DNA from: Escherichia coli
GTDB taxonomy: Bacteria; Pseudomonadota; Gammaproteobacteria; Enterobacterales; Enterobacteriaceae
Assembly: GCF_044324875.1 (NCBI RefSeq)
Contig: NZ_CP172185.1
Reading direction: 5' to 3' (one strand)
DNA length: 64,000 nt
Positions within the stretch are counted from its first letter, which is position 1, and each line of letters begins with the position of its first letter. Of the stretch, positions 2,989 through 48,695 are shown one piece after another. The notes under the pieces are model-generated. The model was not told the DNA's origin, did not search any database, and worked only from the letters and a program-made list of their open reading frames with translations. The translations under genes and the position numbers were made by a program.

Positions 2989-3197
2989 GCAGCAAACACG
3001 ATACCAACGCACGCAGACCAGGCAAAGAGGCGCGTCACCATATCGCCGTAATGCGCAACCTGCTTATGAGTGAAATCGACGATTTTGTGGCAGGCCTGGG
3101 GCAACCGGGCGAACCAGCAACACCAGGCCAGATACACAGGGAATTACGCCGCCGCGTGGAAAACGTCGTGGATTACGTCATAAACCCGAACGACTGA
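2985..3197 (+). CDS. Hypothetical early phage protein
   Basis: 70-aa ORF with GAGG RBS. Confidence 0.45.
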   Translation: MSSKHDTNARRPGKEARHHIAVMRNLLMSEIDDFVAGLGQPGEPATPGQIHRELRRRVENVVDYVINPND

Positions 3198-3236
3198 CGG
3201 GAACATGGCGAGCGTCAGATGACACACGCAGGGCAC

Positions 3237-3719
3237 TTATCGGGAAAAACCGATCGTAATGGCAGCCATCATCTTTTCAGCGAAAGAGAGAGATTCACGA
3301 TGACTGATATTCAGAGACATACAGGCTTTGTTGTACGCCACATTTTCCATGCATTCCAGGACAGGAGAGTCATGCATCTCAAGCTCTGGAAGGCGTGCCA
3401 GCAGAGCTTCCGTACTGAGGAGGGCGCTTTTGGTAATCAACTCATTGTAGCGATGGGCATGCTCACTCGCCGCCTGCGCACGTTGCCCGAAACGACATAT
3501 GAAATTACAGGCTCCGAGAACCACCACCACTGCCCCAAGCACCCAGCCGAAATGCCAGCCGGCTACGATGAACGCACCCGCCGCAAGGATCAAAATGTTG
3601 ATGATCGCATCAAGGCGACGATTGAATACCGCCGCGATGCGCTCCAGCCAGTAGCTGTACCAGAGACGGAACATGACCTCATCCCGTTCTCTCGATTTTT
3701 TACGTTGGTTGTTTTGCAT
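3237..3719 (-). CDS. Antisense-oriented two-TM membrane protein (160 aa); candidate moron
   Basis: Basic N-terminus (RKKSRER), two adjacent hydrophobic helices (IINILILAAGAFIVAGW / WVLGAVVVVLGACNFI), GAGGGA RBS; a competing plus-strand ORF 3219-3854 overlaps it. Confidence 0.4.
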   Translation of the reverse strand: MQNNQRKKSRERDEVMFRLWYSYWLERIAAVFNRRLDAIINILILAAGAFIVAGWHFGWVLGAVVVVLGACNFICRFGQRAQAASEHAHRYNELITKSALLSTEALLARLPELEMHDSPVLECMENVAYNKACMSLNISHRESLSFAEKMMAAITIGFSR

Positions 3720-3953
3720 GGTGTTTTATCCCTCATCGTCATCGCTCTGCCCCTAATCAGCGCAGAGTGCAGGGTAACCTGGCTCGTGGAATTTTTGCAG
3801 CCAGACATCTTTACCCCCGGGCGTGTTGAACAAAGTGTCCGCCAGATCCACTGAACGGCGGATTCATCAATGCTAACACGCCCTTCTTTTCCGGTTGAAG
3901 GCGAAAAAACCGGACCATTACCCCGACACAAAACAGAACAACGGAGAACAACT

Positions 3954-4508
3954 ATGCCCGCACTTAAACCTATGGGTGTATCAGGTGTACCACCGAAGCA
4001 TGTCAGAGCCTGGACACAACAGGAAGATGCTCTACTGGTCGGTTTATACCCCTCCCACACCGTACCAGAACTGACAAAACACTTTCAGAGAACCGGGCCA
4101 GCAATACGAAGCCGCATCCGTCTTTTGCTCTCTCAGGGGGTTATCCACACCAAACAACCCCCCCTGAATACAAAAGAACTCAACACGCTCATCAGGAATC
4201 GCCACACAAAAACCATCCGGGAACTCGCGAATGAACTGGGGCGCTCGACATCCACGGTGGGACTGAACCTGAGAAAAAGAGGGTACCGGTTCAGGAAATA
4301 CGGGGAACTCCACCACAGAGCCAGATACAGCGATCACCTGGTGGAGTTGGTAACTGAACTGCGCGATGAACAGGGGATGACATTCAGCGAAATCAGAAAG
4401 TACATCCGGGACATGGCCGGGATATCCCTTAAAAGATGGGTCCTCGCCCGGCTTTACGCACGATATACCGCCGCTGACACCGTGCTTTGCGAACTGCTAC
4501 CGGACTGA
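3954..4508 (+). CDS. DNA-binding protein with three tandem HTH-like repeats
   Basis: GGAGA RBS before ATG at 3954; three repeated helix-turn-helix-like segments. Confidence 0.55.
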   Translation: MPALKPMGVSGVPPKHVRAWTQQEDALLVGLYPSHTVPELTKHFQRTGPAIRSRIRLLLSQGVIHTKQPPLNTKELNTLIRNRHTKTIRELANELGRSTSTVGLNLRKRGYRFRKYGELHHRARYSDHLVELVTELRDEQGMTFSEIRKYIRDMAGISLKRWVLARLYARYTAADTVLCELLPD

Positions 4509-4828
4509 GTAACCACTATGCACACACAAAAAAACCGCTTGCCATGCCGCAATCAGTCAGGTTACATTTCCGCTGCACCTCATAAAACGGGTGCCGGGAT
4601 TGCAACCCCCGCTGACAACTACAGCGCACAACCGCGCCAGCGGTTTTTTTGTGCGTACCGTATCGCCACGTCTTTTTCGCGCCAGAATTATGGCGGGGCG
4701 TATGGGGCCGACTTCGGTCGGGCCGGTTTCTGTAGTTGCCGGTGGTTGCAACCCTGTACGTCTCGCCACCCAGAATTGCAACCTCTGGATGGTGAGTTTT
4801 CAAAACTTGCAACTACAGAGGCCACACC

Positions 4829-5053
4829 ATGGCAAACCGCAAACAACAGCGCGCATACGCTGCGCGTCGTCACATCCAGACTGAAATCAACCGCAGACTT
4901 TTCCGCGCATTCCGCGTCGCGCATATCATGCACATCAATATGCTGCATGAGCGCAGCCACGCACTGTCAAACATGTATTCCGCCGCTGTATTCAGCTACC
5001 TGGCGGATGACCTGCGCGAGCTGCAGGACCTCATTAACCAGCACCACCACTAA
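4829..5053 (+). CDS. Small hypothetical protein (74 aa)
   Basis: ORF immediately after a TTGCAAC repeat cluster; weak RBS. Confidence 0.3.
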   Translation: MANRKQQRAYAARRHIQTEINRRLFRAFRVAHIMHINMLHERSHALSNMYSAAVFSYLADDLRELQDLINQHHH

Positions 5054-5121
5054 TCAACATCCCGGAGCCATCCCGCCCCCGTACGCGGGAGGCTTCCGCA
5101 CGTCCGTTTCCGGAGGTTCTC

Positions 5122-5535
5122 ATGAAGAGCGTTAAGGGACTTTCAGATATTCAGGATTTTTTTAACTGGATGTGGGCGGTGGATCCACGCCTCGCTTCCC
5201 GTCTCAATGACCTGCACGACTATTACCGCCGCGCCTGTAAACAGGCAGCCCGCAGCGCTGCCACATACGGGGATTTTTCCTTCACCGTTGACGACCGTTA
5301 CCGCGTGGATGTCAGAGACCAGAACCACAGCCTGGAGCTGGGCCTGTTCCACATCAACGGGTGCGACAGCAGCGTTATCAGCTGGTCATCGTCAGAAATG
5401 GTGCTCGTTCTGGAAATGACCACCCACAGCGTGGTCGTGAAAGGGATTAAAACAGCAGAAGACTTTATCGCTGAATACCAGCGCCTTCTTGTGCTGTACC
5501 GGGCTGCATTTCAGAAGGCAACAGCAGGGGAGTAA
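5122..5535 (+). CDS. Hypothetical protein upstream of the replication gene
   Basis: 137-aa ORF with GGAGG RBS. Confidence 0.5.
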   Translation: MKSVKGLSDIQDFFNWMWAVDPRLASRLNDLHDYYRRACKQAARSAATYGDFSFTVDDRYRVDVRDQNHSLELGLFHINGCDSSVISWSSSEMVLVLEMTTHSVVVKGIKTAEDFIAEYQRLLVLYRAAFQKATAGE

Positions 5536-5540
5536 GCGGA

Positions 5541-8051
5541 ATGAGCCATCACCACACGCACCTGGCGTACCCGTGGAACGCCCCGCTGCCGGTTATTGAT
5601 CCTGAGACATTCGGCAGAGCATTACCGCAGAAGCCAACCGCATTACAACGGGCAATCCGTGACTACCTCACCGAAGACATTCGCACTGAGGCCCGGCTGG
5701 ATGAAGAAACCGTGGCCTTCCTGACAACCACGGACAAAGGTAAGCAAATTAATTCACACCTTCACCGGGACGAAGAGCGGCAGATAAGGCTGGATAAGCT
5801 GGCACGACACAGACGCGAAAATCCGCCAACGGCGGTATCGGAGGCGATAGCCGAACTTCGCACCCTGCCCTCGTTTCTTGCCAGTGTGTTGATCCGTGAT
5901 CTGGCACGACTGAACCGGAAACAGCAAAGTGCCCGCAGTGAAGGTGTAAAAAACAACAGCGCATACGTGGCCGATAATTTCGTTCGCCGTGGACTGCGTG
6001 CGCGCCTGAAACGTATTGAAAGGGTTAACGACCGCTTTGCAACGCCGGCATTCAAAACCACCGTCGTGCGCCATCGCCTTGAAGAACTGCTCACACTGCC
6101 GCAACTCACCCGTGACGAAATCCAGCGCATCGCCACACTGACAGCCCAGGCATTCGCCGCAGAATTTGAACGCATATGTGATGAAGTTCTTGAACGGACA
6201 GGCAAGGATAATGACAGCCCGGTTATCTGGCTGCTGGCCTACCAGAAGGTGGCACGCACAGCCTTAATTCTGGGCATGGTCCCGCCATACTGGCCGGAAC
6301 TCGAAATCAGGCACAACCGACGCACACCGCCGGACCCTGAACGGGTTCCGGGTGCGGTACTGCGCATCACCTGCGCGACCTGGTGGAACAACCAGTTACG
6401 CCACGTCGCCGATCTCTGGCGGGAGGAGTTACTGCGCGCCGCCGGCAGAGTGTCACGTAAACAATCCCCCTATATCAGCCATGAGTCACTACTGGAGTTC
6501 CGCGAGAAGCGCCAGCGCACCTGTGACTTTCTCAAAAGCTGGGATATTGAAAACGAAGACGGCGAGCGCCTGAGTCTGGAGGACGTGTACTGGGCTGGCC
6601 TGGGTAATCCACGCAACCGCCGCAATGAAATGATGGTCTGCGTCAGAGGGATGGAGATGGTGGCCGAATTACGGGCTGACGTCGCATTCTTCATCACAGT
6701 AACCACCCCTTCCCGCTTTCACAGCGTGAACGAGAACGGCAGCCTGAACCCGAAATACAACGGTGCCACAGTACGAGATGCCAGTGATTATCTGGTTTAC
6801 GACTTCTTCGCAGCCGTAAGAAAAAAAATAAAAAAAGAGGGGCTGGGCTGGTACGGCGTGCGAACCGCTGAGCCACACCATGACGGCACGCCACACTGGC
6901 ATATGCTGGTATTCACTTCCCCGGAGAACGCAGAGCGCATCATCGAAATTATGCGCGAAGCAGCAATTAAATCAGATCGCCACGAACTGGGGGACGATAT
7001 TTCACCGCGCTTTAAATGCGAGAAGATAGACCCGGAAAAAGGCACACCGGCAAGCTATATCGCAACCTATATCGGTAAGAACCTGGACGCCAGCGCTTTC
7101 CACAACAATGATCCGAAAACCGGAAAACCTTACGTTGATGAGGAATCCGGGAAAACCATGGCGGAAACCGTGGAGAACGCCATTGCCTGGGCAAGCCTTC
7201 ACCGCATCCGTCAGTTCCAGTTTTTCGGCATTCCGCCCCGCCAGGTATGGCGTGAACTCCGCCGCCTTGCAAGCCAGATGGAGCGCAACCCGGCATCACC
7301 GAAGCACCTCGATCATGACGATATTGACGCCATTATGGCTGCCGCAGATGTGGGATGTTTTGCCACCTACATCATGAAACAGGGTGGTGTGCTCATTCCG
7401 CGCAACCAGTATCTGGTCCGCACCGCATACGAAACCGCAGACGAAGCCAACGACTACGGTGAATTCCCTCAACGTATCTACGGAATCTGCGCCCCGTCGC
7501 TCGGAGAGCGGTACACCATATGCACCCATCCGGACGAGTGGAAACTGGTTAAAAAAGAAACAATACCAGACAACCGCACGGGCGAGGGTTTTGACCTTCA
7601 GGGCGACCCCGTCGCCCCTTGGACTCGTGGCAATAACTGTCCCCGGGATGAAAAAACAGACAATCACGGACCAGAAAACAGGCAGGACCCCGGACGACTG
7701 ACGCTTCCCGAAGAGAACCTGGAAAGCTGGCTGAATACGTTAAGCAGGGGCGATCGGAGAAAACTGCGTAATCAGATTAAAAATCAGCCGTCGGGCGCAA
7801 AAACCGGACAAAACGACACCACACCGGCATCTGACACCCCTGTAAGGGTGGGGATTGTCGTGCCTGCGGATACCGCGACGGACACGCAAATCGCCCGCGA
7901 ACTTGATGCGCTGGGTGTGCAGTTGCCTGACGCGGCCATCATCTCCGTGCGTAACGGTGCCCGTGTGCGTCTGGATAACGGGGGAACAGCGTACTGGGAT
8001 GAGTCAGCCCGTCACATCATCACAGAGCAGCCAGTGGAGGCGGGAGCATGA
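5541..8051 (+). CDS. A: P2 gpA-like rolling-circle replication initiator (HUH endonuclease)
   Basis: 836 aa; HxH motif context TPHWHMLVF; position and size match the P2 A family. Confidence 0.85.
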   Translation: MSHHHTHLAYPWNAPLPVIDPETFGRALPQKPTALQRAIRDYLTEDIRTEARLDEETVAFLTTTDKGKQINSHLHRDEERQIRLDKLARHRRENPPTAVSEAIAELRTLPSFLASVLIRDLARLNRKQQSARSEGVKNNSAYVADNFVRRGLRARLKRIERVNDRFATPAFKTTVVRHRLEELLTLPQLTRDEIQRIATLTAQAFAAEFERICDEVLERTGKDNDSPVIWLLAYQKVARTALILGMVPPYWPELEIRHNRRTPPDPERVPGAVLRITCATWWNNQLRHVADLWREELLRAAGRVSRKQSPYISHESLLEFREKRQRTCDFLKSWDIENEDGERLSLEDVYWAGLGNPRNRRNEMMVCVRGMEMVAELRADVAFFITVTTPSRFHSVNENGSLNPKYNGATVRDASDYLVYDFFAAVRKKIKKEGLGWYGVRTAEPHHDGTPHWHMLVFTSPENAERIIEIMREAAIKSDRHELGDDISPRFKCEKIDPEKGTPASYIATYIGKNLDASAFHNNDPKTGKPYVDEESGKTMAETVENAIAWASLHRIRQFQFFGIPPRQVWRELRRLASQMERNPASPKHLDHDDIDAIMAAADVGCFATYIMKQGGVLIPRNQYLVRTAYETADEANDYGEFPQRIYGICAPSLGERYTICTHPDEWKLVKKETIPDNRTGEGFDLQGDPVAPWTRGNNCPRDEKTDNHGPENRQDPGRLTLPEENLESWLNTLSRGDRRKLRNQIKNQPSGAKTGQNDTTPASDTPVRVGIVVPADTATDTQIARELDALGVQLPDAAIISVRNGARVRLDNGGTAYWDESARHIITEQPVEAGA

Positions 8052-8479
8052 CGCGATTTTGCTGCACCATGCAGCGCCCACAGTTTGAGGCCATCATGCG
8101 CCAGCGTATGCCGGTGCTGACACTGTTCAGGCCTGCCACAAGGCCACAACCGGGCGACGAGCTGGAAATCACGATAGTCAGCCCCGATCGCACCACGGAG
8201 ACCACCATCGCCGACATACTCAACAGGCGGCCGGGCAGCGAGAGCCATAGCTGGACTGTCGTCATTCGTCCGCGCCGTTCGCCGGAGGAACCGGAGCCGT
8301 GCACGCCTGCCGGGAAAATCATGCAGAGATATCACGAAGAGCGGACACGCAGGCACAACGGCGGACTGGCCAGAACACTGAACACAGTCAATCACAAGGC
8401 CGCGCTGGCGCGAATGGTCTTTTCACCACAACGCAATTCATTCGCCAGACCAGCACAGAACGGGAGGAAACAACAGTGA
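8048..8479 (+). CDS. Hypothetical cargo protein, first gene of the accessory operon
   Basis: 143-aa ORF, start overlaps A stop (ATGA), GGAGG RBS. Confidence 0.5.
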   Translation: MTRFCCTMQRPQFEAIMRQRMPVLTLFRPATRPQPGDELEITIVSPDRTTETTIADILNRRPGSESHSWTVVIRPRRSPEEPEPCTPAGKIMQRYHEERTRRHNGGLARTLNTVNHKAALARMVFSPQRNSFARPAQNGRKQQ

Positions 8480-8670
8480 GCAGAATATTACTTTTTCTGC
8501 TGTTTTTCGCGCCATTCGCACAATCAGCCACGCCGAACTGCGTAGCGAAAAAGAGCAACACCGTTGTCATTGTCCAGTGTGATGACGGCACGGTAACAAT
8601 CACCGACTCGAGCAAAGGAAGCGTCATTGTCTGCCGTAAAGAGAAACCCTGTCAGCGAACCGAACTTTGA
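8476..8670 (+). CDS. Small secreted Cys-containing protein (64 aa, GTG start)
   Basis: GGGAGG RBS; signal-peptide-like N-terminus ILLFLLFFAPFAQSA; four Cys in the mature part. Confidence 0.45.
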   Translation: MSRILLFLLFFAPFAQSATPNCVAKKSNTVVIVQCDDGTVTITDSSKGSVIVCRKEKPCQRTEL

Positions 8671-8860: not shown

Positions 8861-9616
8861 TTAACGCGTTTTTTCGCTGCTTTCCACTACCGGGGGATTT
8901 TTCCTCAGTGACTCTCCCTGAAGGACCACTCGGTGTGAGTTATGTACCAGTCTGTCCAGGATGGCATCTGCTGTTGTTGGGTTCTCCATCAGACCATGCC
9001 ATTTATCTACCGGGAACTGGCTTACCACTATCGTGCTGCTTTGTCCGTAACGATCCTCTATGAGCTCCAGAAGGTCATTACACTGGGCGTTACTTAACTG
9101 TTCCAGCCCCAGATCGTCCAGGATTAGAACCTGTATTTTTTGCAACTGTTTCAGATATTTCAGCCAGCTGCCATCAACACGTCCCTGAGCCAGTTGTTCC
9201 AGTAATCGCCCGGTTCTACAGTACCGGACGCTGTGTTTCTGTCGACATGCCTGTTCGCCCAGCGCATTGGCTATCCAGCTCTTGCCACATCCTGTCGGAC
9301 CGGTTATCAGCAGGTTTTTCCTGTGGGTTATGTAGTGGCCGTTCAGCAGTTCTCTCATCTGTTCAGCCCGCAGACCTCTTGAGGCCGGATAGCGCAGCCC
9401 TTCCGGTGTTGCCTGGTATTTCAGGCCGGCATTTTTTCTCAACCGTGCCACACGGCTGTTTTCCCTGCTCAGAAGCTCGTCATCAACCAGCAGCGTCAGC
9501 CTTTCCTCGAACGACAGTTCGTCGTAGGTCTGAGGCGTTTCCCGCTGCCGTATCAGGCTCCCGGCCATCGCCGGGAGTTTCAGTTGGGTCAGTTTGTTTA
9601 ACAGGTTATCACTCAT
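8861..9616 (-). CDS. istB: IS21-family helper ATPase IstB
   Basis: Walker A GPTGCGKS; start taken at MSDNLLNKL. Confidence 0.85.
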   Translation of the reverse strand: MSDNLLNKLTQLKLPAMAGSLIRQRETPQTYDELSFEERLTLLVDDELLSRENSRVARLRKNAGLKYQATPEGLRYPASRGLRAEQMRELLNGHYITHRKNLLITGPTGCGKSWIANALGEQACRQKHSVRYCRTGRLLEQLAQGRVDGSWLKYLKQLQKIQVLILDDLGLEQLSNAQCNDLLELIEDRYGQSSTIVVSQFPVDKWHGLMENPTTADAILDRLVHNSHRVVLQGESLRKNPPVVESSEKTR

Positions 9617-9632
9617 ACTGTTGTTCCTTCTG

Positions 9633-11168
9633 TCAGTGGTAGTAGCCCGGACCACGCAGGTTTTCATGCTCTGAAGCATATGCCGGATGTTGTTCGCCCT
9701 GGCGGGATAATGGAAGCTCCAGGTTCTCCCGATGGTGACGCAGCAGATTGTCGATAAAGCGTCTGTCAGGGGCGTTATAGTGCAGGGCAACGTAACAGGC
9801 CTTTTCCAGCCGTTCCGGGCCGTATTTTTTCTGAAGTGCCAGCAGCCCCAGAACTGCACGATAAGCCAGTTCCGGATGGGGTTTTGCCTTCAGCATGGAT
9901 TCAACCACCCGGCCTGTGGACGGGCCCGTACGTTTTCCCTGCTCGATCAGGCGTTCCGGTGTCCATGTCCCGTGCTGCCGGTGGCGCTCTGGCATGTGAA
10001 GCGGATTGGTTGTGTGTTTATATTCATGTGTGCTGCGCGGATGTTGCGCCACACACTGCCCCTTGTGCCAGAGCTGTACCACCGACTGCCCCGCCTTCAG
10101 TGACAGACGCTGACCGACCAGTTCGTGTGGAACGGAGTACCAGTGACGGGCATATTCAACGTGGTAGTCAGGGCCAACCTTCACAGCTTTGTATTCCGTG
10201 TATTCATAAGGTGCCAGAGGCAGCGGAGAGAGTGCTGGCGCATCCAGTATGCGGAAGCGTTCTGCACGGGTTTGATTGCCGTACCCCTTCATTGGCCGGT
10301 TATTCATGTCTGTCAGTAACTCCCTAAGGCGCGCATTCAGCGCCCTGAGCGTGTGGAAGGTTTCATTACGGATGCGGGCAAGAAGCCATCGTTCAACGAT
10401 GAGGACGCCGTTTTCTGCTTTTGGTTTATCTTTAGGTTTGCGTGGTCGGGCCGGGATGATAACCGTGCCATAGTGCTCAGCCAGTGCCTGATAACTGTCG
10501 TTGATGACAGGCTCATATCGATCGGCCTTTTTCACTGCGCTTCTGAGGTTATCGGGGATGAGCAGCTTCGGTACGCCGCCCAGGAAGGTCAGGCAACGGC
10601 TGTGGGCATTTAACCATGACATCATGTCCTGACCTTCGCACGCTTCAACGTAGGTATAGTTGGACGCCCCCATTACGGCCACGAAGATTGCCACGCGGCG
10701 TATCTCACCGGTGTCCGGATTAATAACAGGAACCGTAGGACCACAGAAGTCGATAAAAAGCTTTTCGCCGGCACGATGCTCCTGGCGCATGGAGAGACGT
10801 CGCGTTTTTTTCCACTCCCGGTAGCAACGGCAGAAGTGCGAGTATCCCATCGCTTTGTTACCCGCCTGTGCCTTGTATTCCATCCACAACAGTTGCCGCG
10901 TCACACCTGGTTTTCTCATTTCCGTATCGAAGTACAACATGTCAGGCATTACAAGCTCTGATGCAAAGGTGTCTTTGGGCGGAAAAATGAGTTTCTCCAG
11001 CGTGTCATGGGATATATCAGCAGGTAATGGCCATGACAGAGAAGAGGCTTTGAAGCGGGCAAGAACCTCAAAAACGGTTGAGGCGCTGATGTGTAACGTC
11101 AGTCCGATACAACGGTTAGTCAGCTTCTTGTCGAACTTGAGCTGAAGGATCTTAAAACAGGTTTCCAT
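9633..11168 (-). CDS. istA: IS21-family transposase IstA
   Basis: ~512 aa from METCFKILQ; N-terminal HTH and integrase-like catalytic core typical of IstA. Confidence 0.85.
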   Translation of the reverse strand: METCFKILQLKFDKKLTNRCIGLTLHISASTVFEVLARFKASSLSWPLPADISHDTLEKLIFPPKDTFASELVMPDMLYFDTEMRKPGVTRQLLWMEYKAQAGNKAMGYSHFCRCYREWKKTRRLSMRQEHRAGEKLFIDFCGPTVPVINPDTGEIRRVAIFVAVMGASNYTYVEACEGQDMMSWLNAHSRCLTFLGGVPKLLIPDNLRSAVKKADRYEPVINDSYQALAEHYGTVIIPARPRKPKDKPKAENGVLIVERWLLARIRNETFHTLRALNARLRELLTDMNNRPMKGYGNQTRAERFRILDAPALSPLPLAPYEYTEYKAVKVGPDYHVEYARHWYSVPHELVGQRLSLKAGQSVVQLWHKGQCVAQHPRSTHEYKHTTNPLHMPERHRQHGTWTPERLIEQGKRTGPSTGRVVESMLKAKPHPELAYRAVLGLLALQKKYGPERLEKACYVALHYNAPDRRFIDNLLRHHRENLELPLSRQGEQHPAYASEHENLRGPGYYH

Positions 11169-11400
11169 AGTGCTCCTGGATTTTCTCTTTCTGGACATTG
11201 ACGTCTCCACTGGTTTAAACACGGCAATGGAGACTGTGGTGAAAAGAGTTAATTCCCGGAGTGACTGGCAGGATGCCAATCAATGATCGGAAGCATGCCA
11301 AATCGTGATCGATTGTGATGCCAAACTGTGATCGGAGATGGATGCCAAATCATGATCGATTCGAATGCCAAACTGCGATCGATTCAGATGCCATTTTGCA

Positions 11401-42644: not shown

Positions 42645-45600
42645 TTAGTCAAACGGCGGTGGGGCCAGCACTTCACGATTACCGTTGTGCCCCTGTTCGC
42701 TGACAATCCCCTGCGCTTCCATCTGTTCGATAATACGCGCTGCACGGTTATAACCAATGCGGAACTGACGCTGTACGCCAGAAATTGATGCTTTGCGTTT
42801 TTCAGTGACAAACTGCACCGCCTGATCGAACAACGGATCCAGTTCTTCAGCGCCATCGAAACCGCCCGCGCCACCTTCGCTTTCACTGTCGGAGGTGATG
42901 CCATCAACATACTGTGGGCGACCACGCGCTTTCCAGTCCTGCACCACGGCATGAACTTCCTGATCGCGAACAAAAGCACCATGAACACGTACCGGCAACG
43001 TGGAGTTCGGCCCAGAGTAAAGCATATCCCCCATACCCAGCAGTGATTCCGCGCCAGCCTGATCAAGAATGGTACGTGAGTCAATCTTACTGGATACGGT
43101 AAAGGCGATACGGGTCGGAATATTCGCTTTAATCAGACCAGTAATAACATCAACCGATGGACGCTGCGTTGCCAGTACGAGGTGGATACCCGCGGCACGG
43201 GCTTTTTGCGCAAGACGTGCTATAAGCTCTTCCACTTTTTTACCTACCGTCATCATCAGGTCGGCAAATTCGTCCACCAACACCACAATGTACGGTTCTT
43301 TTTTCAGCACCGGATGCTGGGCATCCATACTGTCACCCGGCTTCCAGTACGGGTCTGGAATCGGACGCATCATGCGATCGGCTTCAGCAATTTTTTCGTT
43401 ATAACCCGCCAGATTACGCACACCTAGGGCGGACATCAGCTTATAACGACGTTCCATTTCATTTACGCACCAGCGCAAAGCGTTGGCAGCATCTTTCATG
43501 TCGGTAACGACTTCCGTTAACAGATGCGGAATGCCTTCATAAACCGAAAGCTCCAGCATTTTCGGGTCGATCATGATGAAACGCACATCTTCTGGCTGTG
43601 CTTTATAAAGCATGCTCAGGATCATCGCGTTCACCCCGACAGACTTACCGGAACCGGTAGTCCCCGCAACCAACAAGTGCGGCATTTTCGCCAGATCGGC
43701 AACCACCGGCTCACCGGCGATATCTTTACCCAGCACCACGGTTAATGGCGACGGATTATCGCGGAATTTGGCGTTATCCAATACTTCGCGCAGATAAACG
43801 GTTTGTCGTTTTTTATTCGGTAACTCCAGACCTACATAGGGTTTGCCAGGAATAACTTCAACGACACGCACCGCCACCGTCGAAAGTGAACGGGCAAGGT
43901 CCCGTGACAAGTTAGAAATGCGCGCCGCTTTTACGCCCGGTGCCAGGTTAAGTTCAAAGCGAGTGATAACCGGCCCCGGAGAGTAATTGACGACATCGGC
44001 TTTAATACGGAAATCAGCCAGACGCGCTTCCACCAGACGCGCCATTTGTTCAAGCGCAAAGGTATCTACCGGCTCCACTTCGCTCGGCGGAGGTGTCAAC
44101 AAATCCAAAGAAGGCAGCGGCGTCGTCGGTTTATGCAACGGACGGCTGTCGCCATTACGCATCAACAGCGGATGAAGCAGGGTATCCTGCGGCTGTGGCG
44201 CAACTGGCTGTTGTGGCTGCTGATACTGCTGCTGCGGTGCAACCGGTTGTTGCGGCTGCTGTACAGGTTCAACAATTGGCGTAAACAACGGTTCGTGTGG
44301 ACCATCATCCAGCAACGCTTTCATTGGCGAAAATTCAAAATCATCCAGCGAGAACGGATTCGCCCCAGCCGGTTGTTCGCCGGAATAACGTTGTTGTTGA
44401 GTTTGCGCAAACTGACGAGCCAGTTCAGCCTCTGCCGCAGCATCTGCATCTTCTGCGTTTACGGGCACATCATGTTGATACTGTTCGCCATAGCGTTGCT
44501 GCTGTGTCTGGGCGAACTGACGTGCCAGTTCATCCTGCTGCATCGCATCGATTTCATCATCGTTGTACTGATCGCCAGAATCGTACTGATTGCGCTGGGC
44601 TTCACGGGCTTTTTCTTCTGCCGCACGCTGTGAGGGCAGCTTAATACCGTAAGACGCCAATTCACGACGAGTTGGCACGCGGATACGTTTCGGTCGTGGC
44701 AACTGCGGGCCAATCCCCTCTTTGACCTGCGGACGCGGTCCACCGCTATTTGCCAGACTGAAGACTGGCGCGGCAACGGTTGCGGCAGCCCCCGTCGCCA
44801 GTGTCGCTTTTTTCACGCCAGATGCCAGCGGAGAAACAGCGGCAGCGGCTTCTACTGGAGGTACTGCTGCAACAGAAGGTGCTTTCAGCGAAGATTTGAT
44901 CGGTTCTGGTTCTTTAACCGGTTCAGGAATCGGTTGATACCAGGCCGCAAGTTGTTCACGTTCACGGGCACGCTTCTCTTCCACTTCTTCAAAATAGTAA
45001 AGCGGCGGACGCGCGGGTTTTGTCTCTTCTACAACGGGCTCAGGCTCCACAACAGGGTGCTGTTCAACGGGTTGCGGCTGTTGGTACAACGGCTCCTGAG
45101 CGGCTGGCTGCTGATAAGTTTGCTCAGTCTGGTATGTAGACTGTGGAGCAAAAGTGGATTGCTGCTCTTCGGCTTGCCAGGCGTTACCTGCCGCCGTTTG
45201 TTCTGGCGCAGGGGCGTAATACGGCTGTTGCGCAGACTGTTCCGCCGCAGTTGCATAATACGGCTGCTGAACAGGTTGTTCCGCCGCAGGAGCGTAGTAA
45301 GGTTGTTGCACAGGTTGTTCCGCTGCTGGCGCATAATACGGCTGCTGTGGCTGTACAGGTTGTTGCAGCGGCTCATTATATTGCACTGCAGGCTGCGCAT
45401 ATTGTGGCTGCTGTGGGTAACCTTCCTGTGCAGGAGCAATAACCGGCTCTCCCGTTTGTGGCCCCGGTACAGGCTGCCAGGCTACTGTAGGTTGTGCAGG
45501 TGGAACATCAACAGAGGCAACAGGCGGCGTCTGAGTCACAGGTTCAACCGGCGCAGCCCAGCTTTGTGTCGCCGTGGTAGCAGCAGCTGCTACAGCAACA

Positions 45601-46556
45601 GGTTCGGTAATTGGCGCACCGTTTAATAATGGATCGTATTCGTCATATTCTGGCTGCGTTGCACGATTGCCCGAAAAGAGGACGTCGTCCGGGTCGGCAG
45701 CCACACCGCGTGCAGTGTAGGTAATCTCTTCTTCATCATCCATCCGCTTACCGGAGAACAACGCAGCATCTGTTTGCCGCCCCATCGGATTAATGAATTT
45801 TTCCGCCAACCGTTTACGACGCGCTAACGCGCCGCGAAGAATACGGGCACGGCGTGATTCATGCTGTTTGCCGTGATTTTCATCTTCATACTCTTCGTCA
45901 TCTTCATACTCATCTTCATCGACCCAGGTATCATCGCGACGTGTACGATTACTGGCGAAGGTGAGAATGTTTAAAATCCAGCCGCCGAGTTTTTCAGCAA
46001 TGGTCACCCATGACCAACCGGTGAACAGCGTCAGACCCGCAGCCCAAACGCAGAGCAGCGCAATAGTTCCCCCGCTACTGTGTAGCAGTGGTTGTAGCGT
46101 AGTGCTTAGTAAGCTGCCAATGACGCCACCGGAGGCAAAATACCAGATATCGTCAGCGTTGATTGCCGCCAGACCACAGGAGGTAAGGATGAGCGCCAAA
46201 ACGCCAATGATGCGTAGCGAAACGGCAAAATAATCAATGTATTCGTCGCTGGACTGATGACGCCAGGCAAACCAACAACCGCCGACAATAATGACGGGAA
46301 TGGTGTAAGCCATCACGCCAAAAATAAAGAACAGCGTATCTGCCAGCCACGCACCGGGCATCCCACCTAAATTATGGATAGGTTCATGCCAGGCCGTTTG
46401 CGACCAGCTGGGGTCCGAAGGGTTAAAGCTTAGTAAGGCAGCCATCAACCAGACGGCAAACAGGACAATAAGGATCAGCAACGCCTCCAGAAGGCGGCGG
46501 CCGCTACTTAACTTTGTCAATGTGACTTCTTTGTCTTCAGTGTATTCCTGGCTCAA
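42645..46556 (-). CDS. ftsK: DNA translocase FtsK
   Basis: 1303 aa; N-terminal TM domain, long Pro/Gln-rich linker, C-terminal motor with Walker A GTTGSGKS. Confidence 0.95.
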
Positions 46557-46690
46557 GAAAGGCTCTCCAGGTTACAGGCTTTTCCTGCCCGATGCTAAAA
46601 CGGACAACAGTACCAGGTTACCCCAGTACTGTTGCTGTATGGATTAACAGGAGTGTAATCAAAATACGCCGATTTTGCACCTGTTCCGTG

Positions 46691-47612: not shown

Positions 47613-48695
<1,083 letters not shown>

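Follow-up and report, generated by a model that had tools for sequence, protein, structure and literature searches.

The window analyzed here is a 64,000-nucleotide stretch of the Escherichia coli contig NZ_CP172185.1, and the interval at 4509-4830 lies in the early region of a P2-like prophage, between a gene for an HTH-repeat protein (3954-4508) and a series of open reading frames that leads to replication gene A. Four plus-strand copies of TTGCAAC, starting at 4600, 4746, 4776 and 4807 in exactly the contexts quoted by the initial annotation, all fall within 4600-4813, whereas ~0.04 copies would be expected in 322 bp (Poisson P of four or more ~9e-8). There is no enrichment across the window as a whole, where 10 matches compare with 15.5 ± 4.5 expected. 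A fifth match in the interval, on the minus strand at 4745-4751, is present because GGTTGCAACC (4744-4753) is a palindrome. The copies are irregularly spaced (146, 30 and 31 nt), and they are accompanied by a second repeat that had been missed: CAACTACAG occurs at both 4616-4624 and 4810-4818, and its complement CTGTAGTTG occupies 4730-4738. A terminator-like hairpin reported along with the repeats is borne out by a terminator scan, which places it at 4630-4645 (AACCGCGCCAGCGGTT) followed by a T run. The description of the interval as a non-coding gap holds in that it contains no supported protein gene; it is not gene-free, since two Rfam RNA families match it above their gathering scores.

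The first of these RNAs, an IsrK-type small RNA (the seqA or a1b1 equivalent; RF01394), occupies 4575-4650 on the plus strand and reaches 60.1 bits (gathering score 50) across model positions 1-77 of 77. It is preceded by a putative promoter at 4539-4568 on the same strand, consisting of a −35 hexamer TTGCCA (4539-4544), an 18-nt spacer and a −10 hexamer TACATT (4563-4568). This promoter is the only sigma-70-like match within 3000-6000 and ends 7 nt upstream of the first IsrK model position, with a predicted start at ~4575; a −10-like hexamer is found at the matching offset in all related loci, and we infer that the promoter is active. From its 5' end, the RNA comprises one hairpin, a second whose loop holds the a1 box, a third with the b1 box and an intrinsic terminator. 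The a1 box (4600-4607, plus strand, TTGCAACC) contains the first TTGCAAC copy, is placed in a hairpin loop by the minimum-energy fold, and forms 8 Watson-Crick pairs with a segment at 4744-4751 termed a' below. The b1 box (4616-4624, plus strand, CAACTACAG) forms 9 pairs with 4730-4738, in the b' loop of the second RNA. The intrinsic terminator that RF01394 requires lies at 4630-4650 on the plus strand, with the stem AACCGC/GCGGTT followed by a U run, and was detected both as the terminal hairpin of the IsrK model and, independently of that model, by the terminator scan. A 21-nt inverted repeat (4522-4542 and 4636-4656) overlaps this region and is unexplained. An antiterminator role for it was considered and rejected, as its upstream arm matches the 5' arm of the terminator in sense and is confined to the P88-like group.

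The second RNA belongs to the C4/CI-type antisense family (RF01695) and spans 4686-4773 on the plus strand; its score of 80.1 bits (E 4.5e-14) clears the gathering score of 45 and covers model positions 1-87 of 87. Its minimum-energy fold (−45.8 kcal/mol) reproduces the Rfam consensus structure, in which a long closing stem encloses two inner hairpins together with a single-stranded junction. The mature form is predicted, from homology to the P1 annotation, to extend over ~4692-4770. The closing stem is acceptor-like and precedes ACC, and known substrates of RNase P include the C4 RNAs of P1 and P7 and the CI RNA of P4 (PMC5499578); C4 would most likely be cut out of the transcript of its own target by RNase P followed by 3' trimming. 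Two segments of this RNA, b' and a', carry complementarity to the flanking boxes. The b' element (4725-4739, plus strand) consists of the loop of hairpin 2 (4727-4738, TTTCTGTAGTTG) and flanking bases, and it forms 15 consecutive pairs, counting G-U, with 4809-4823, a match that no other complementarity of C4 within 4509-4860 equals; on its own, the b' segment (4722-4742) forms a duplex of −28.8 kcal/mol with the leader. The a' element (4744-4753, plus strand, GGTTGCAACC) holds the second TTGCAAC copy and forms the single-stranded junction of the Rfam consensus structure, at the same position as a variable heptamer in related phages. Within it, 4744-4751 pairs over 8 bp with each of the a1 box and a second box at 4776-4783.

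The palindromic nature of a' has the consequence that boxes which are complementary to one another resemble direct repeats in this phage. It could also let C4 pair with C4, as isolated a' segments give a modeled self-pairing energy of −19.9 kcal/mol. Duplex energies between full-length C4 and whole targets proved uninformative in comparison with shuffled sequences because long GC-rich sequences pair anyway, and segment-level and covariation tests were therefore used.

On the messenger side, the a2 box (4776-4783, plus strand, TTGCAACC) lies just 3' of C4, contains the third TTGCAAC copy, forms 8 pairs with 4744-4751, and appears in the loop of a leader hairpin (4762-4796) in the minimum-energy fold. 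The b2 box (4809-4823, plus strand, GCAACTACAGAGGCC) pairs with b' and overlaps both the fourth TTGCAAC copy (4807-4813) and a Shine-Dalgarno sequence, AGAGG at 4817-4821, situated 7 nt upstream of the ATG at 4829. The fourth copy is thus the edge of a b-type box rather than an a-type box: the relative L066 has the same a-box and another b-box and lacks the fourth copy, and P88 retains CTTGCAACTACAG despite having the a-box TTTCCAC. The start codon at 4829 opens a plus-strand gene for a 74-residue protein (4829-5053), proposed here as the first regulated gene, that belongs to the family of the P4 epsilon helper derepression (anti-repressor) protein. Family membership is indicated by a full-length match to phrog_3688 (E 4.5e-42), by BLASTP against P4 epsilon (29% identity, E 1e-7) and by PF25738, for which the score of 27.2 bits is borderline against a cut-off of 27.0 (31.8 for the P88 orthologue and 170 bits for P4 epsilon). 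The RefSeq name of the gene is 'derepression protein', and its anti-repressor activity is putative. Further genes of the same transcription unit follow on the plus strand at 5122-8051, namely a 137-aa ORF (phrog_3237, E 3.2e-53), for which no homology to P4 orf151 was found, and the gene for the replication initiator gpA (5541-8051; Pfam Phage_GPA, E 1.3e-103). These two genes are presumed, by analogy with P1 and P4, to be controlled indirectly, through polarity.

Could the interval instead encode a protein, with the repeats incidental to codons? A 205-aa ORF (4518-5135) and a 97-aa frame (4591-4884) are indeed open, and RefSeq annotates the equivalent of the former in NC_049391, where it reaches 26.5 bits on PF10554 (Phage_ASH) against a cut-off of 26. 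We nevertheless consider coding by either frame very improbable. The 205-aa ORF of the window has no Pfam match and a weak PHROG match, the 97-aa frame reaches only 14.6 bits, and the 205-aa ORF overlaps the well-supported 74-aa gene out of frame. PF10554 also matches the 'cI' ORF of P4, which overlies the CI RNA, and CI is treated as an RNA in the literature. Moreover, the changes seen in relatives keep base pairing and not codons. An antisense 98-aa ORF was likewise rejected, and none of the three ORFs has credible family support in Pfam or PHROG. In some phage records ORFs of the 205-aa type are labelled 'transcriptional regulator' or 'Ash family'.

In all 14 related phage loci examined, Rfam finds C4 accompanied by IsrK or, in P1, by c4-a1b1. 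The box sequences vary among relatives and the reverse complementarity of the C4 copy to the flanking copies is kept (GTGGAAA/TTTCCAC in P88), and this combination of variable sequence and conserved complementarity is the signature of RNA-RNA pairing. Across 15 loci there are 12 different a' sequences, and in every locus an exact reverse complement of at least 7 nt is present both upstream and downstream; boxes taken from other loci match over a mean of 4 nt, and only 0-2% of such comparisons give a match of 7 nt. The same pattern holds for 120 IMG/VR copies representing 36 a'/b' combinations, in which the complement of a copy's own a' is found upstream in 119 of 120 and downstream in 120 of 120, and foreign a' variants are present upstream in 2.7% and downstream in 0.9%. 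Own-locus b2 matches terminate in GAG or GAGG at 11 of the 15 loci and in AGG at another 3. A formal pair count over 13 loci found 95% of cells paired for a1-a' and b1-b', with 14 of 16 pairs changed on both sides and a covariation score of 0.83, compared with 0.20 for shuffles (none of 500 reached 0.83) and 0.05-0.19 for slid controls. The MAFFT alignment from IsrK to the start codon is poor in the leader because the offset of a2 is variable, so the formal count was confined to these upstream pairs; covariation of a'-a2 and b'-b2 comes from our own scripts.

These results bear directly on the earlier proposal that TTGCAAC marks binding sites of the adjacent triple-HTH protein, with the copies acting as DNA operators. 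The HTH-repeat gene does lie directly upstream of the clustered copies, and its product has HTH-like segments, as judged by weak Pfam matches and a match to phrog_323 ('transcriptional regulator', E 2.4e-27). The proposal is nevertheless unsupported, and it fails the test that the initial annotation itself named, a search for the motif in relatives, where the boxes differ and their complementarity is kept. In the Citrobacter phage Shae_phiSM the neighboring gene retains 85% amino-acid identity, yet the boxes at the same positions read TTGGAAC, GTTCCAA and TTGGAAC. In P88 the cassette is 93% identical, but an SPFH-domain gene replaces the HTH gene, and a search of 50,697 phage records turned up a single close relative of the HTH protein and 141 records with the cassette. 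In relatives, the flanking copies are reverse complements of the one in C4 and the sequence changes freely (13 a' variants); this, like the irregular spacing and the membership of the fourth copy in a different box, counts against operators. We therefore give the operator reading hardly any credence; from sequence comparison, the gene at 3954-4508 is unlinked to the cassette.

The initial annotation also raised an auxiliary replication or regulatory element. The regulatory half of that suggestion stands, in that the element sits between the HTH gene and the genes leading to replication gene A, and a replication-origin role finds no support. The sole point in favor of the repeats being iterons or an auxiliary origin for gpA is their closeness to the replication gene, and we regard this possibility as negligible. 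The repeats lie in two structured RNA genes with compensatory covariation, their sequences differ among phages that have a common gpA family, and lambdoid, N15-like and P1 phages, whose replication systems are unrelated, have the cassette ahead of anti-repressor genes. The origin of P2 itself is located inside gene A.

The TTGCAAC copies are RNA-RNA pairing boxes of IsrK, of C4 and of the messenger that they would control. We observed directly the matches to both RNA families, the complementary segments and their covariation, and the coverage of the Shine-Dalgarno sequence by b2. With considerable confidence we read 4539-4828 as an IsrK-C4 RNA immunity cassette belonging to the early operon of an E. 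coli prophage of the P2-like (P88-like) kind. As judged by sequence, it is a known device, represented by a1b1-c4-a2b2 in P1 immI and by seqA-CI(seqB)-seqC in the satellite phage P4, and most likely one that here holds back the anti-repressor and replication genes of a P2-like prophage. Two papers on P88 and PhiSM make no mention of the element.

How would such a cassette work? Judging by homologous systems, transcription from the promoter at 4539-4568 would begin near 4575, and the majority of transcripts would end at the terminator (4630-4650), giving an IsrK RNA of ~76 nt with a1 (TTGCAACC) and b1 (CAACTACAG). C4 (4686-4773) would be contained in read-through transcripts and in transcripts from the early promoter, from which excision and trimming would most likely release a stable RNA of ~79 nt. 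This RNA would display b' in its hairpin loop and a' in its junction and would pair with b2 (4809-4823) and a2 (4776-4783) of the messenger. Pairing at b2 would cover the Shine-Dalgarno sequence of the epsilon-like anti-repressor gene and block its translation, and through Rho-dependent polarity the transcript would probably stop before the 137-aa gene and replication gene A. IsrK, which carries a1 and b1, would serve as a target mimic that holds a' and b' in cis in the read-through transcript or titrates C4 in trans, such that the balance between IsrK and C4 would decide anti-repressor production. The box sequences would be the determinants of specificity, different between phages.

The literature assigns the upstream element different roles: IsrK/seqA is described as necessary for immunity in P4 and as an activator in trans in Gifsy-1 (PMC3632133, PMC4825925). 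A possible but rather doubtful alternative is that the same cassette acts in the manner of P4, with the pairing of C4 to a1/b1 and a2/b2 mainly causing premature termination, IsrK/seqA a required co-target rather than a decoy, and the translation block secondary. The order of an IsrK-like element, C4, an epsilon homologue and a replication gene is that of P4, for which published accounts describe transcription termination by CI RNA paired to seqA and seqC, with seqA required for the establishment of immunity (PMC4825925; PMC3632133). Against this stand the position of b2 exactly on the Shine-Dalgarno sequence, as in P1, and the effect of IsrK supplied in trans in Gifsy-1, which is 139-fold on translation and 8-fold on transcription (PMC4825925). 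The two modes are compatible, because a translation block feeds Rho-dependent termination.

Comparison with P4, whose layout is P_LE - seqA - CI RNA/seqB - seqC - epsilon - orf151 - cnr - alpha, shows several likenesses to the cassette. In both, a C4-family RNA (74.9 bits on P4 CI) follows an IsrK-family element (60.8 bits in the upstream seqA region of P4), and downstream lies a derepression gene of the epsilon family with a replication gene beyond it. Inspection by eye also reveals two-box complementarity on both sides of the P4 RNA, with a1 GUGAGAA and b1 UUCACAGG facing a' UUCUCAC and b' CCUGUGAA. The differences concern the host element and its genes. A P4-like satellite is a small element without virion genes that carries alpha primase, sid, psu and delta, whereas the element in the window is a P88-like Peduoviridae prophage, a complete phage of the P2-like type that encodes a C repressor of its own (219-560), Cox and gpA and has large ORFs arranged like the P2 virion (structural) genes. 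Its replication gene encodes a rolling-circle initiator (gpA) in place of the alpha primase, and a Pfam search found no alpha-type primase adjoining the cassette. Its epsilon homologue is 29% identical to that of P4 and has 74 aa rather than 95, and it begins 55 nt after C4 as opposed to ~245 nt in P4, a shorter distance that puts b2 directly on its Shine-Dalgarno sequence.

The cassette also resembles the immI region of P1 and P7 (a1 b1 - c4 - a2 b2 - icd - ant). P1 c4 belongs to the same RNA family (68.8 bits), its annotated RNA (48343-48419) lies inside the Rfam match (48337-48422), and a1, b1, c4, a2, b2 and icd are annotated in the same order and spacing. The a2 site occupies the same position, 4 nt after c4 in P1, and the distal site, annotated in the P1 record with 'repression of icd ant translation', immediately precedes the first ORF. 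Each phage has a short first ORF, of 73 aa in P1 and 74 aa in the window, ahead of further regulated genes, with an anti-repressor output that is putative here. In contrast to P1, that first ORF is a putative anti-repressor of the epsilon family and not an Icd homologue; Pfam and PHROG searches found neither Icd nor Ant1/Ant2 downstream of C4, and the ORFs there match PF25738/phrog_3688, phrog_3237 and Phage_GPA. The upstream element of P1 matches c4-a1b1 (RF03163) rather than IsrK, and the P1 promoter carries a C1 operator, none being identified here.

Among Gifsy-1, lambdoid and Stx phages, the common feature is an IsrK and C4 tandem ~25-35 nt apart followed by an anti-repressor-type gene, and this arrangement is present in mEp460, cdtI, Stx2 phages and 118970_sal3. 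GenBank LC710660 already annotates both IsrK and C4. In Gifsy-1, where the locus is isrK - orf45/STnc1160 - anrP, IsrK exists as a terminated short RNA and a read-through form, and an ~80-nt RNA, STnc1160, is processed from the read-through at the position of C4 (PMC4825925). The authors interpreted the C4 region as coding ('orf45'), with no reference to P1 c4 or to RNase P (PMC4825925). IsrK in trans raised translation of the downstream anti-repressor >100-fold, and the predicted cis pairing between the middle of IsrK and the C4 region in the window corresponds to their 'structure A' (PMC4825925). Point mutations at G28/G31 of IsrK and at positions 162/159 altered expression (PMC4825925), and coordinate arithmetic would place these in a1 and a'. 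Expression did not return to the low level of the wild type in double compensatory mutants (PMC4825925), and the pairing scheme is therefore more complex than a single duplex. Gifsy-1 differs from the window in being a lambdoid phage with a Rha/Ant-type anti-repressor gene downstream.

N15, whose anti-immunity region consists of CA RNA and an anti-repressor operon, carries IsrK (62.4 bits) and C4 (78.8 bits) upstream of that operon, with a/b boxes of its own that are complementary. It differs in having other anti-repressor genes and a linear plasmid prophage. The anti-immunity region of N15 is linked to SOS regulation, whereas no LexA box lies near the cassette in the window, CTGT-N8-ACAG being found there only at 10495 and 46635. 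In GenBank U63086 the matched region is labelled 'cA: secondary immunity repressor'.

Identification of the cassette neither opens nor closes a long-standing question. What it contributes is an explanation of the repeats, the assignment of two known regulatory RNAs to a ~320-bp gap that is unannotated in RefSeq, and grounds for dropping the spurious 'transcriptional regulator / Ash' ORF that some phage annotations contain. The immunity specificity of each phage becomes predictable from two short boxes. P2-like helper phages and P4 satellites are also shown to have the RNA switch and the epsilon gene family in common, which bears on the induction of P2-type prophages without an obvious SOS link. 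A more speculative proposal, which we think improbable at present, is that P88-like helpers have a copy of their own of the RNA cassette and epsilon-family anti-repressor otherwise known from the satellite P4 and use the cassette as the prophage's own induction gate. If so, inactivation of the resident C repressor, the presumed target of the epsilon-like protein, would depend on the balance of IsrK and C4. The shared switch would then be a possible point of helper-satellite conflict, where matching a/b boxes would let one element silence the epsilon and replication genes of the other, and the palindromic a' of this rare variant would let C4, IsrK and the leader pair mutually and with themselves.

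Sequence at least 80% identical to the interval occurs in 1184 of 5426 complete E. coli genomes, and the exact b'-a' segment occurs in 14 of the 5426 and in 3 IMG/VR contigs. Cross-talk with a co-resident element was rejected, as the exact segment is always present once per genome or contig. No element of the same a/b specificity was found in another context in IMG/VR or the 5426 genomes, so cross-talk is currently unsupported. The context of the exact segment is P88-like in the 3 IMG/VR contigs examined, and the 14 genomes that carry it equal in number the matches of at least 99% to the 322-bp region.

The gap at 4509-4830 starts after the stop codon of an HTH-repeat gene (3954-4508) and runs to the ATG of a 74-aa ORF. 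Four copies of TTGCAAC and a terminator-like hairpin had been claimed here in the initial annotation, and both are present: the copies match the contexts quoted, at + strand positions 4600, 4746, 4776 and 4807, and a clean intrinsic terminator at 4630-4645 is followed by a T run. A - strand match at 4745 mirrors a + strand copy because GGTTGCAACC is palindromic. Across the window the motif is not over-represented (10 matches versus 15.5 expected), and within these 322 bp the + strand carries 4 copies versus ~0.04 expected (Poisson P ~9e-8). What do these repeats represent? An Rfam scan of the whole window at curated thresholds gave two matches inside the gap, both full length and on the + strand: IsrK (RF01394) at 4575-4650, with 60.1 bits against a threshold of 50, and the C4 antisense RNA (RF01695) at 4686-4773, with 80.1 bits against 45. 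The terminator is the 3' end of IsrK. A predicted sigma-70-like promoter (TTGCCA-18-TACATT, 4539-4568, +), the only such match in 3000-6000, ends 7 nt ahead of the first IsrK position.

A search for all stretches within 4509-4860 that pair with C4 returned as its top complement 15 consecutive pairs between 4725-4739 in the hairpin-2 loop (GGUUUCUGUAGUUGC) and 4809-4823 (GCAACUACAGAGGCC), which cover the Shine-Dalgarno sequence AGAGG (4817-4821). The core of the C4 loop (CUGUAGUUG) forms 9 bp with 4616-4624 in IsrK, and the C4 junction GGUUGCAA (4744-4751) forms 8 bp with 4600-4607 and also 8 bp with 4776-4783. These complementarities therefore define two box types: box a (TTGCAACC), found as a1 in IsrK, a' in C4 and a2 in the leader downstream of C4, and box b (CAACTACAG), found as b1 in IsrK, b' in C4 and b2 over the Shine-Dalgarno sequence. 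IsrK, C4 and this leader are referred to below as the cassette. The second IsrK hairpin displays the first TTGCAAC copy (4600) in its loop, the second copy (4746) falls in the single-stranded C4 junction from hairpin 2 to the closing stem, and the third (4776) sits directly 3' of C4, whose Rfam match ends at 4773; the fourth (4807) overlaps GCAACTACAGAGG right before the ATG at 4829 and is part of b2. Folding of the read-through RNA predicts that the a1/b1 region of IsrK (4599-4625) pairs in cis with b'/a' of C4 (4729-4755). It also predicts an alternative partner for the 3' strand of the closing stem of C4 (CUCGCCACCCAG), namely a conserved GGTGGTGAG-type segment downstream (4785-4796). The hairpin that would result (4762-4796), an alternative to folding into C4, would display a2 in its loop. 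The GGTG core of the downstream segment is invariant in 13/13 aligned loci (alignment A1 columns ~196-236), and an equivalent complement to the closing-stem strand is visible in P1.

One hypothesis, raised in the initial annotation, is that the repeats are sites for the HTH protein encoded next to them. However, Shae_phiSM has the same neighbor gene (85% amino-acid identity) and different boxes, the P88 cassette (93% identity) adjoins an SPFH-domain gene instead, and the protein has one close relative among phage records versus a cassette present in 141. The conserved block also starts at ~4522, downstream of the HTH gene, and a motif search in relatives, proposed at the outset as one check on this hypothesis, revealed TTGCAAC to be absent from the same position, all of which argues against a protein operator.

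The alternative, RNA–RNA pairing, predicts that complementarity is kept while the sequence itself is free to change, unlike a protein operator. The a' heptamer has 12 different sequences in 15 loci, with b' variable too, and its exact reverse complement occurs in both the IsrK element and the leader of every one of the 15 (for example, GTGGAAA and TTTCCAC in P88, GTTCCAA and TTGGAAC in Shae_phiSM, CTGTCAA and TTGACAG in P1). When the loci were compared in a cross matrix, every a' had a Watson-Crick run of 7 nt or more within its own locus; against loci whose boxes differ, the mean run was 4.0 nt, and 7 nt was reached in 2% of cases downstream and 0% upstream. An IMG/VR scan with the boxes set to N yielded 120 usable C4 copies with 36 a'/b' combinations; the complement of the copy's own a' was found upstream in 119/120 and downstream in 120/120, versus 2.7% and 0.9%, respectively, for foreign a' variants. 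A formal count of a1-a' and b1-b' pairs in a MAFFT alignment of 13 loci showed 95.1% of cells paired and changes on both sides in 14 of the 16 pairs, and the covariation score was 0.833 versus 0.195 for shuffles (0/500 reached the observed value) and 0.05-0.19 for slid controls. The complementary boxes look like direct repeats because a' is here its own reverse complement, an uncommon state (2/13 a' variants), and the palindrome therefore explains why direct repeats were noticed initially. P88 retains CTTGCAACTACAG although its a-box is TTTCCAC, and a relative with the same a-box and another b-box (L066) lacks the fourth TTGCAAC copy.

The surrounding genes identify a P2-like E. coli prophage of the P88 / Xuanwuvirus type: C repressor (219-560, -), Cox (664-1185), small early genes followed by the HTH-repeat gene and the gap, the 74-aa 'derepression protein' (4829-5053), a 137-aa ORF and the replication initiator gpA (5541-8051). 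Downstream of gpA, an IS21-family insertion within the prophage is indicated at 8861-11279 (-) by two overlapping ORFs with IstB_IS21 (E 2.4e-60) and Mu-transposase-C/rve domains; the matching RefSeq genome annotates a truncated gene just ahead of this insertion point. In all 14 related phage loci examined (P88-like, lambdoid/Stx, N15, a Klebsiella phage and P1), C4 is preceded by an Rfam match to IsrK or, in P1, to c4-a1b1. In Shigella phage Ss-VASD, sRNA-Xcc1 (RF02221) matches at 2524-2607 with 79.6 bits, ~830 nt downstream of its IsrK and C4 genes. A 21-nt inverted repeat (4522-4542, ACACACAAAAAAACCGCTTGC, and 4636-4656, GCCAGCGGTTTTTTTGTGCGT; 90% complementary) brackets the IsrK promoter and gene in the window. 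Its right arm consists of the T run and the preceding 3' half of the IsrK terminator, its left arm lies where conservation among P88-like phages with differing upstream genes begins, and it is missing from the lambdoid, N15 and Klebsiella cassettes; it is possibly the scar of a module junction.

Satellite P4 matches the C4 model at its CI RNA (74.9 bits) and the IsrK model in the region upstream (60.8 bits), and downstream it has the 'helper derepression' gene epsilon and then the alpha replication gene. IsrK and C4 have been described as structural homologues of P4 seqA and CI RNA, forming an 'IsrK-C4 immunity system' found in lambdoid prophages too (Barquist et al., PMC3632133). Sequence comparison makes the 74-aa ORF a homologue of epsilon (29% identity at a BLASTP E of 1e-7; phrog_3688 E 4.5e-42; PF25738 27.2 bits against 27, where the P88 orthologue scores 31.8 and P4 epsilon 170 bits).

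Observed in this analysis are the two RNA families, the complementary boxes, a b2 that overlaps the Shine-Dalgarno sequence and the covariation, and a mechanism can be projected onto these features by homology. Transcripts starting at ~4575 would mostly terminate at 4650 to give IsrK, and read-through and early-promoter transcripts would be cut by RNase P and trimmed at the 3' end to a ~79-nt C4, with P1 annotation transfer placing the mature RNA at ~4692-4770. RNase P substrate listings include C4 of P1/P7 and CI of P4 (PMC5499578). C4 on a2 and b2 would block translation of the epsilon-like gene, polarity would then lower expression of the 137-aa gene and gpA, and IsrK would act as a target mimic that holds or titrates C4. 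The curated P1 record has the order a1, b1, c4 RNA, a2 (4 nt past c4), b2, icd and ant, with b2 just ahead of icd and annotated 'repression of icd ant translation'. As in P1, the main effect may be to block translation in this way; alternatively, as in P4, it may be termination that requires both seqA and seqC. IsrK, likewise, may serve chiefly as decoy or as co-target. At the homologous Gifsy-1 locus, short IsrK and read-through forms exist, processing yields an ~80-nt RNA (STnc1160) at the position of C4, IsrK in trans raises anti-repressor translation 139-fold, and mutations at IsrK 28/31 and positions 159/162 have effects (PMC4825925); coordinate arithmetic places these positions in a1 and a'. 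That paper handles the C4 region as 'orf45', without mention of P1 c4 (PMC4825925).

This kind of system is already known and detected at standard Rfam thresholds, and one GenBank phage record already annotates the IsrK and C4 pair. For P88-like P2-type phages, where the cassette precedes an epsilon-family gene and gpA, no description was found, and it goes unmentioned in two papers on P88 and PhiSM. Of 5426 complete E. coli genomes, 1184 carry the P88-like form (at least 80% identity to the gap) and 14 have the exact specificity of the window, once each, with no second element of that specificity. RefSeq annotates nothing in the gap, no annotated feature covers the C4 segment in the 14 RefSeq E. 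coli carriers of this exact variant (H92-H105), and NZ_CP033635, inspected in detail, has no RNA gene annotated there.

In some phage records, a long ORF across the gap carries the label 'transcriptional regulator' or 'similar to ash family protein'. Translated, the IsrK/C4 region matches Pfam PF10554 ('Ash protein family'), whose cut-off is 26 bits, at 59.7 bits in the P4 'cI' ORF that overlies the CI RNA (8168-8584, -), at 26.5 bits in a 205-aa ORF of P88_4B11 (1501-2118) and at 14.6 bits in frame 4591-4884 (+) of the window, which suggests that the family models an RNA gene in translation. PF10554 served as the epsilon marker in PMC8628076; P4 epsilon itself belongs to PF25738. In the lambdoid phages mEp460, cdtI and Stx2a_WGPS2, a ~383-aa 'antirepressor / transcriptional regulator' CDS (~1141-2292) spans the IsrK and C4 genes; its start sites are likely mis-annotated, the true anti-repressor start probably being the ATG right after b2. 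The corresponding stretch of 118970_sal3 is annotated as two genes.

Elsewhere in the window, an exact LexA-box-like site (CTGTATGGATTAACAG, 46635-46650) precedes the start of a 1303-aa ORF (42645-46556, -) by ~80 nt and is unrelated to the cassette. Two type I-F CRISPR repeats (~54116-54143 and ~54176-54203; core CTGCCTGTACGGCAGTGAAC, 32-nt spacer) resemble a minimal orphan array; no cas genes were noticed close by. The same region (53809-54203) holds a tRNA-Ser(GGA) gene (53809-53896) and then an RtT-family match (53940-54074), the last part of which repeats the 3' end of the tRNA.
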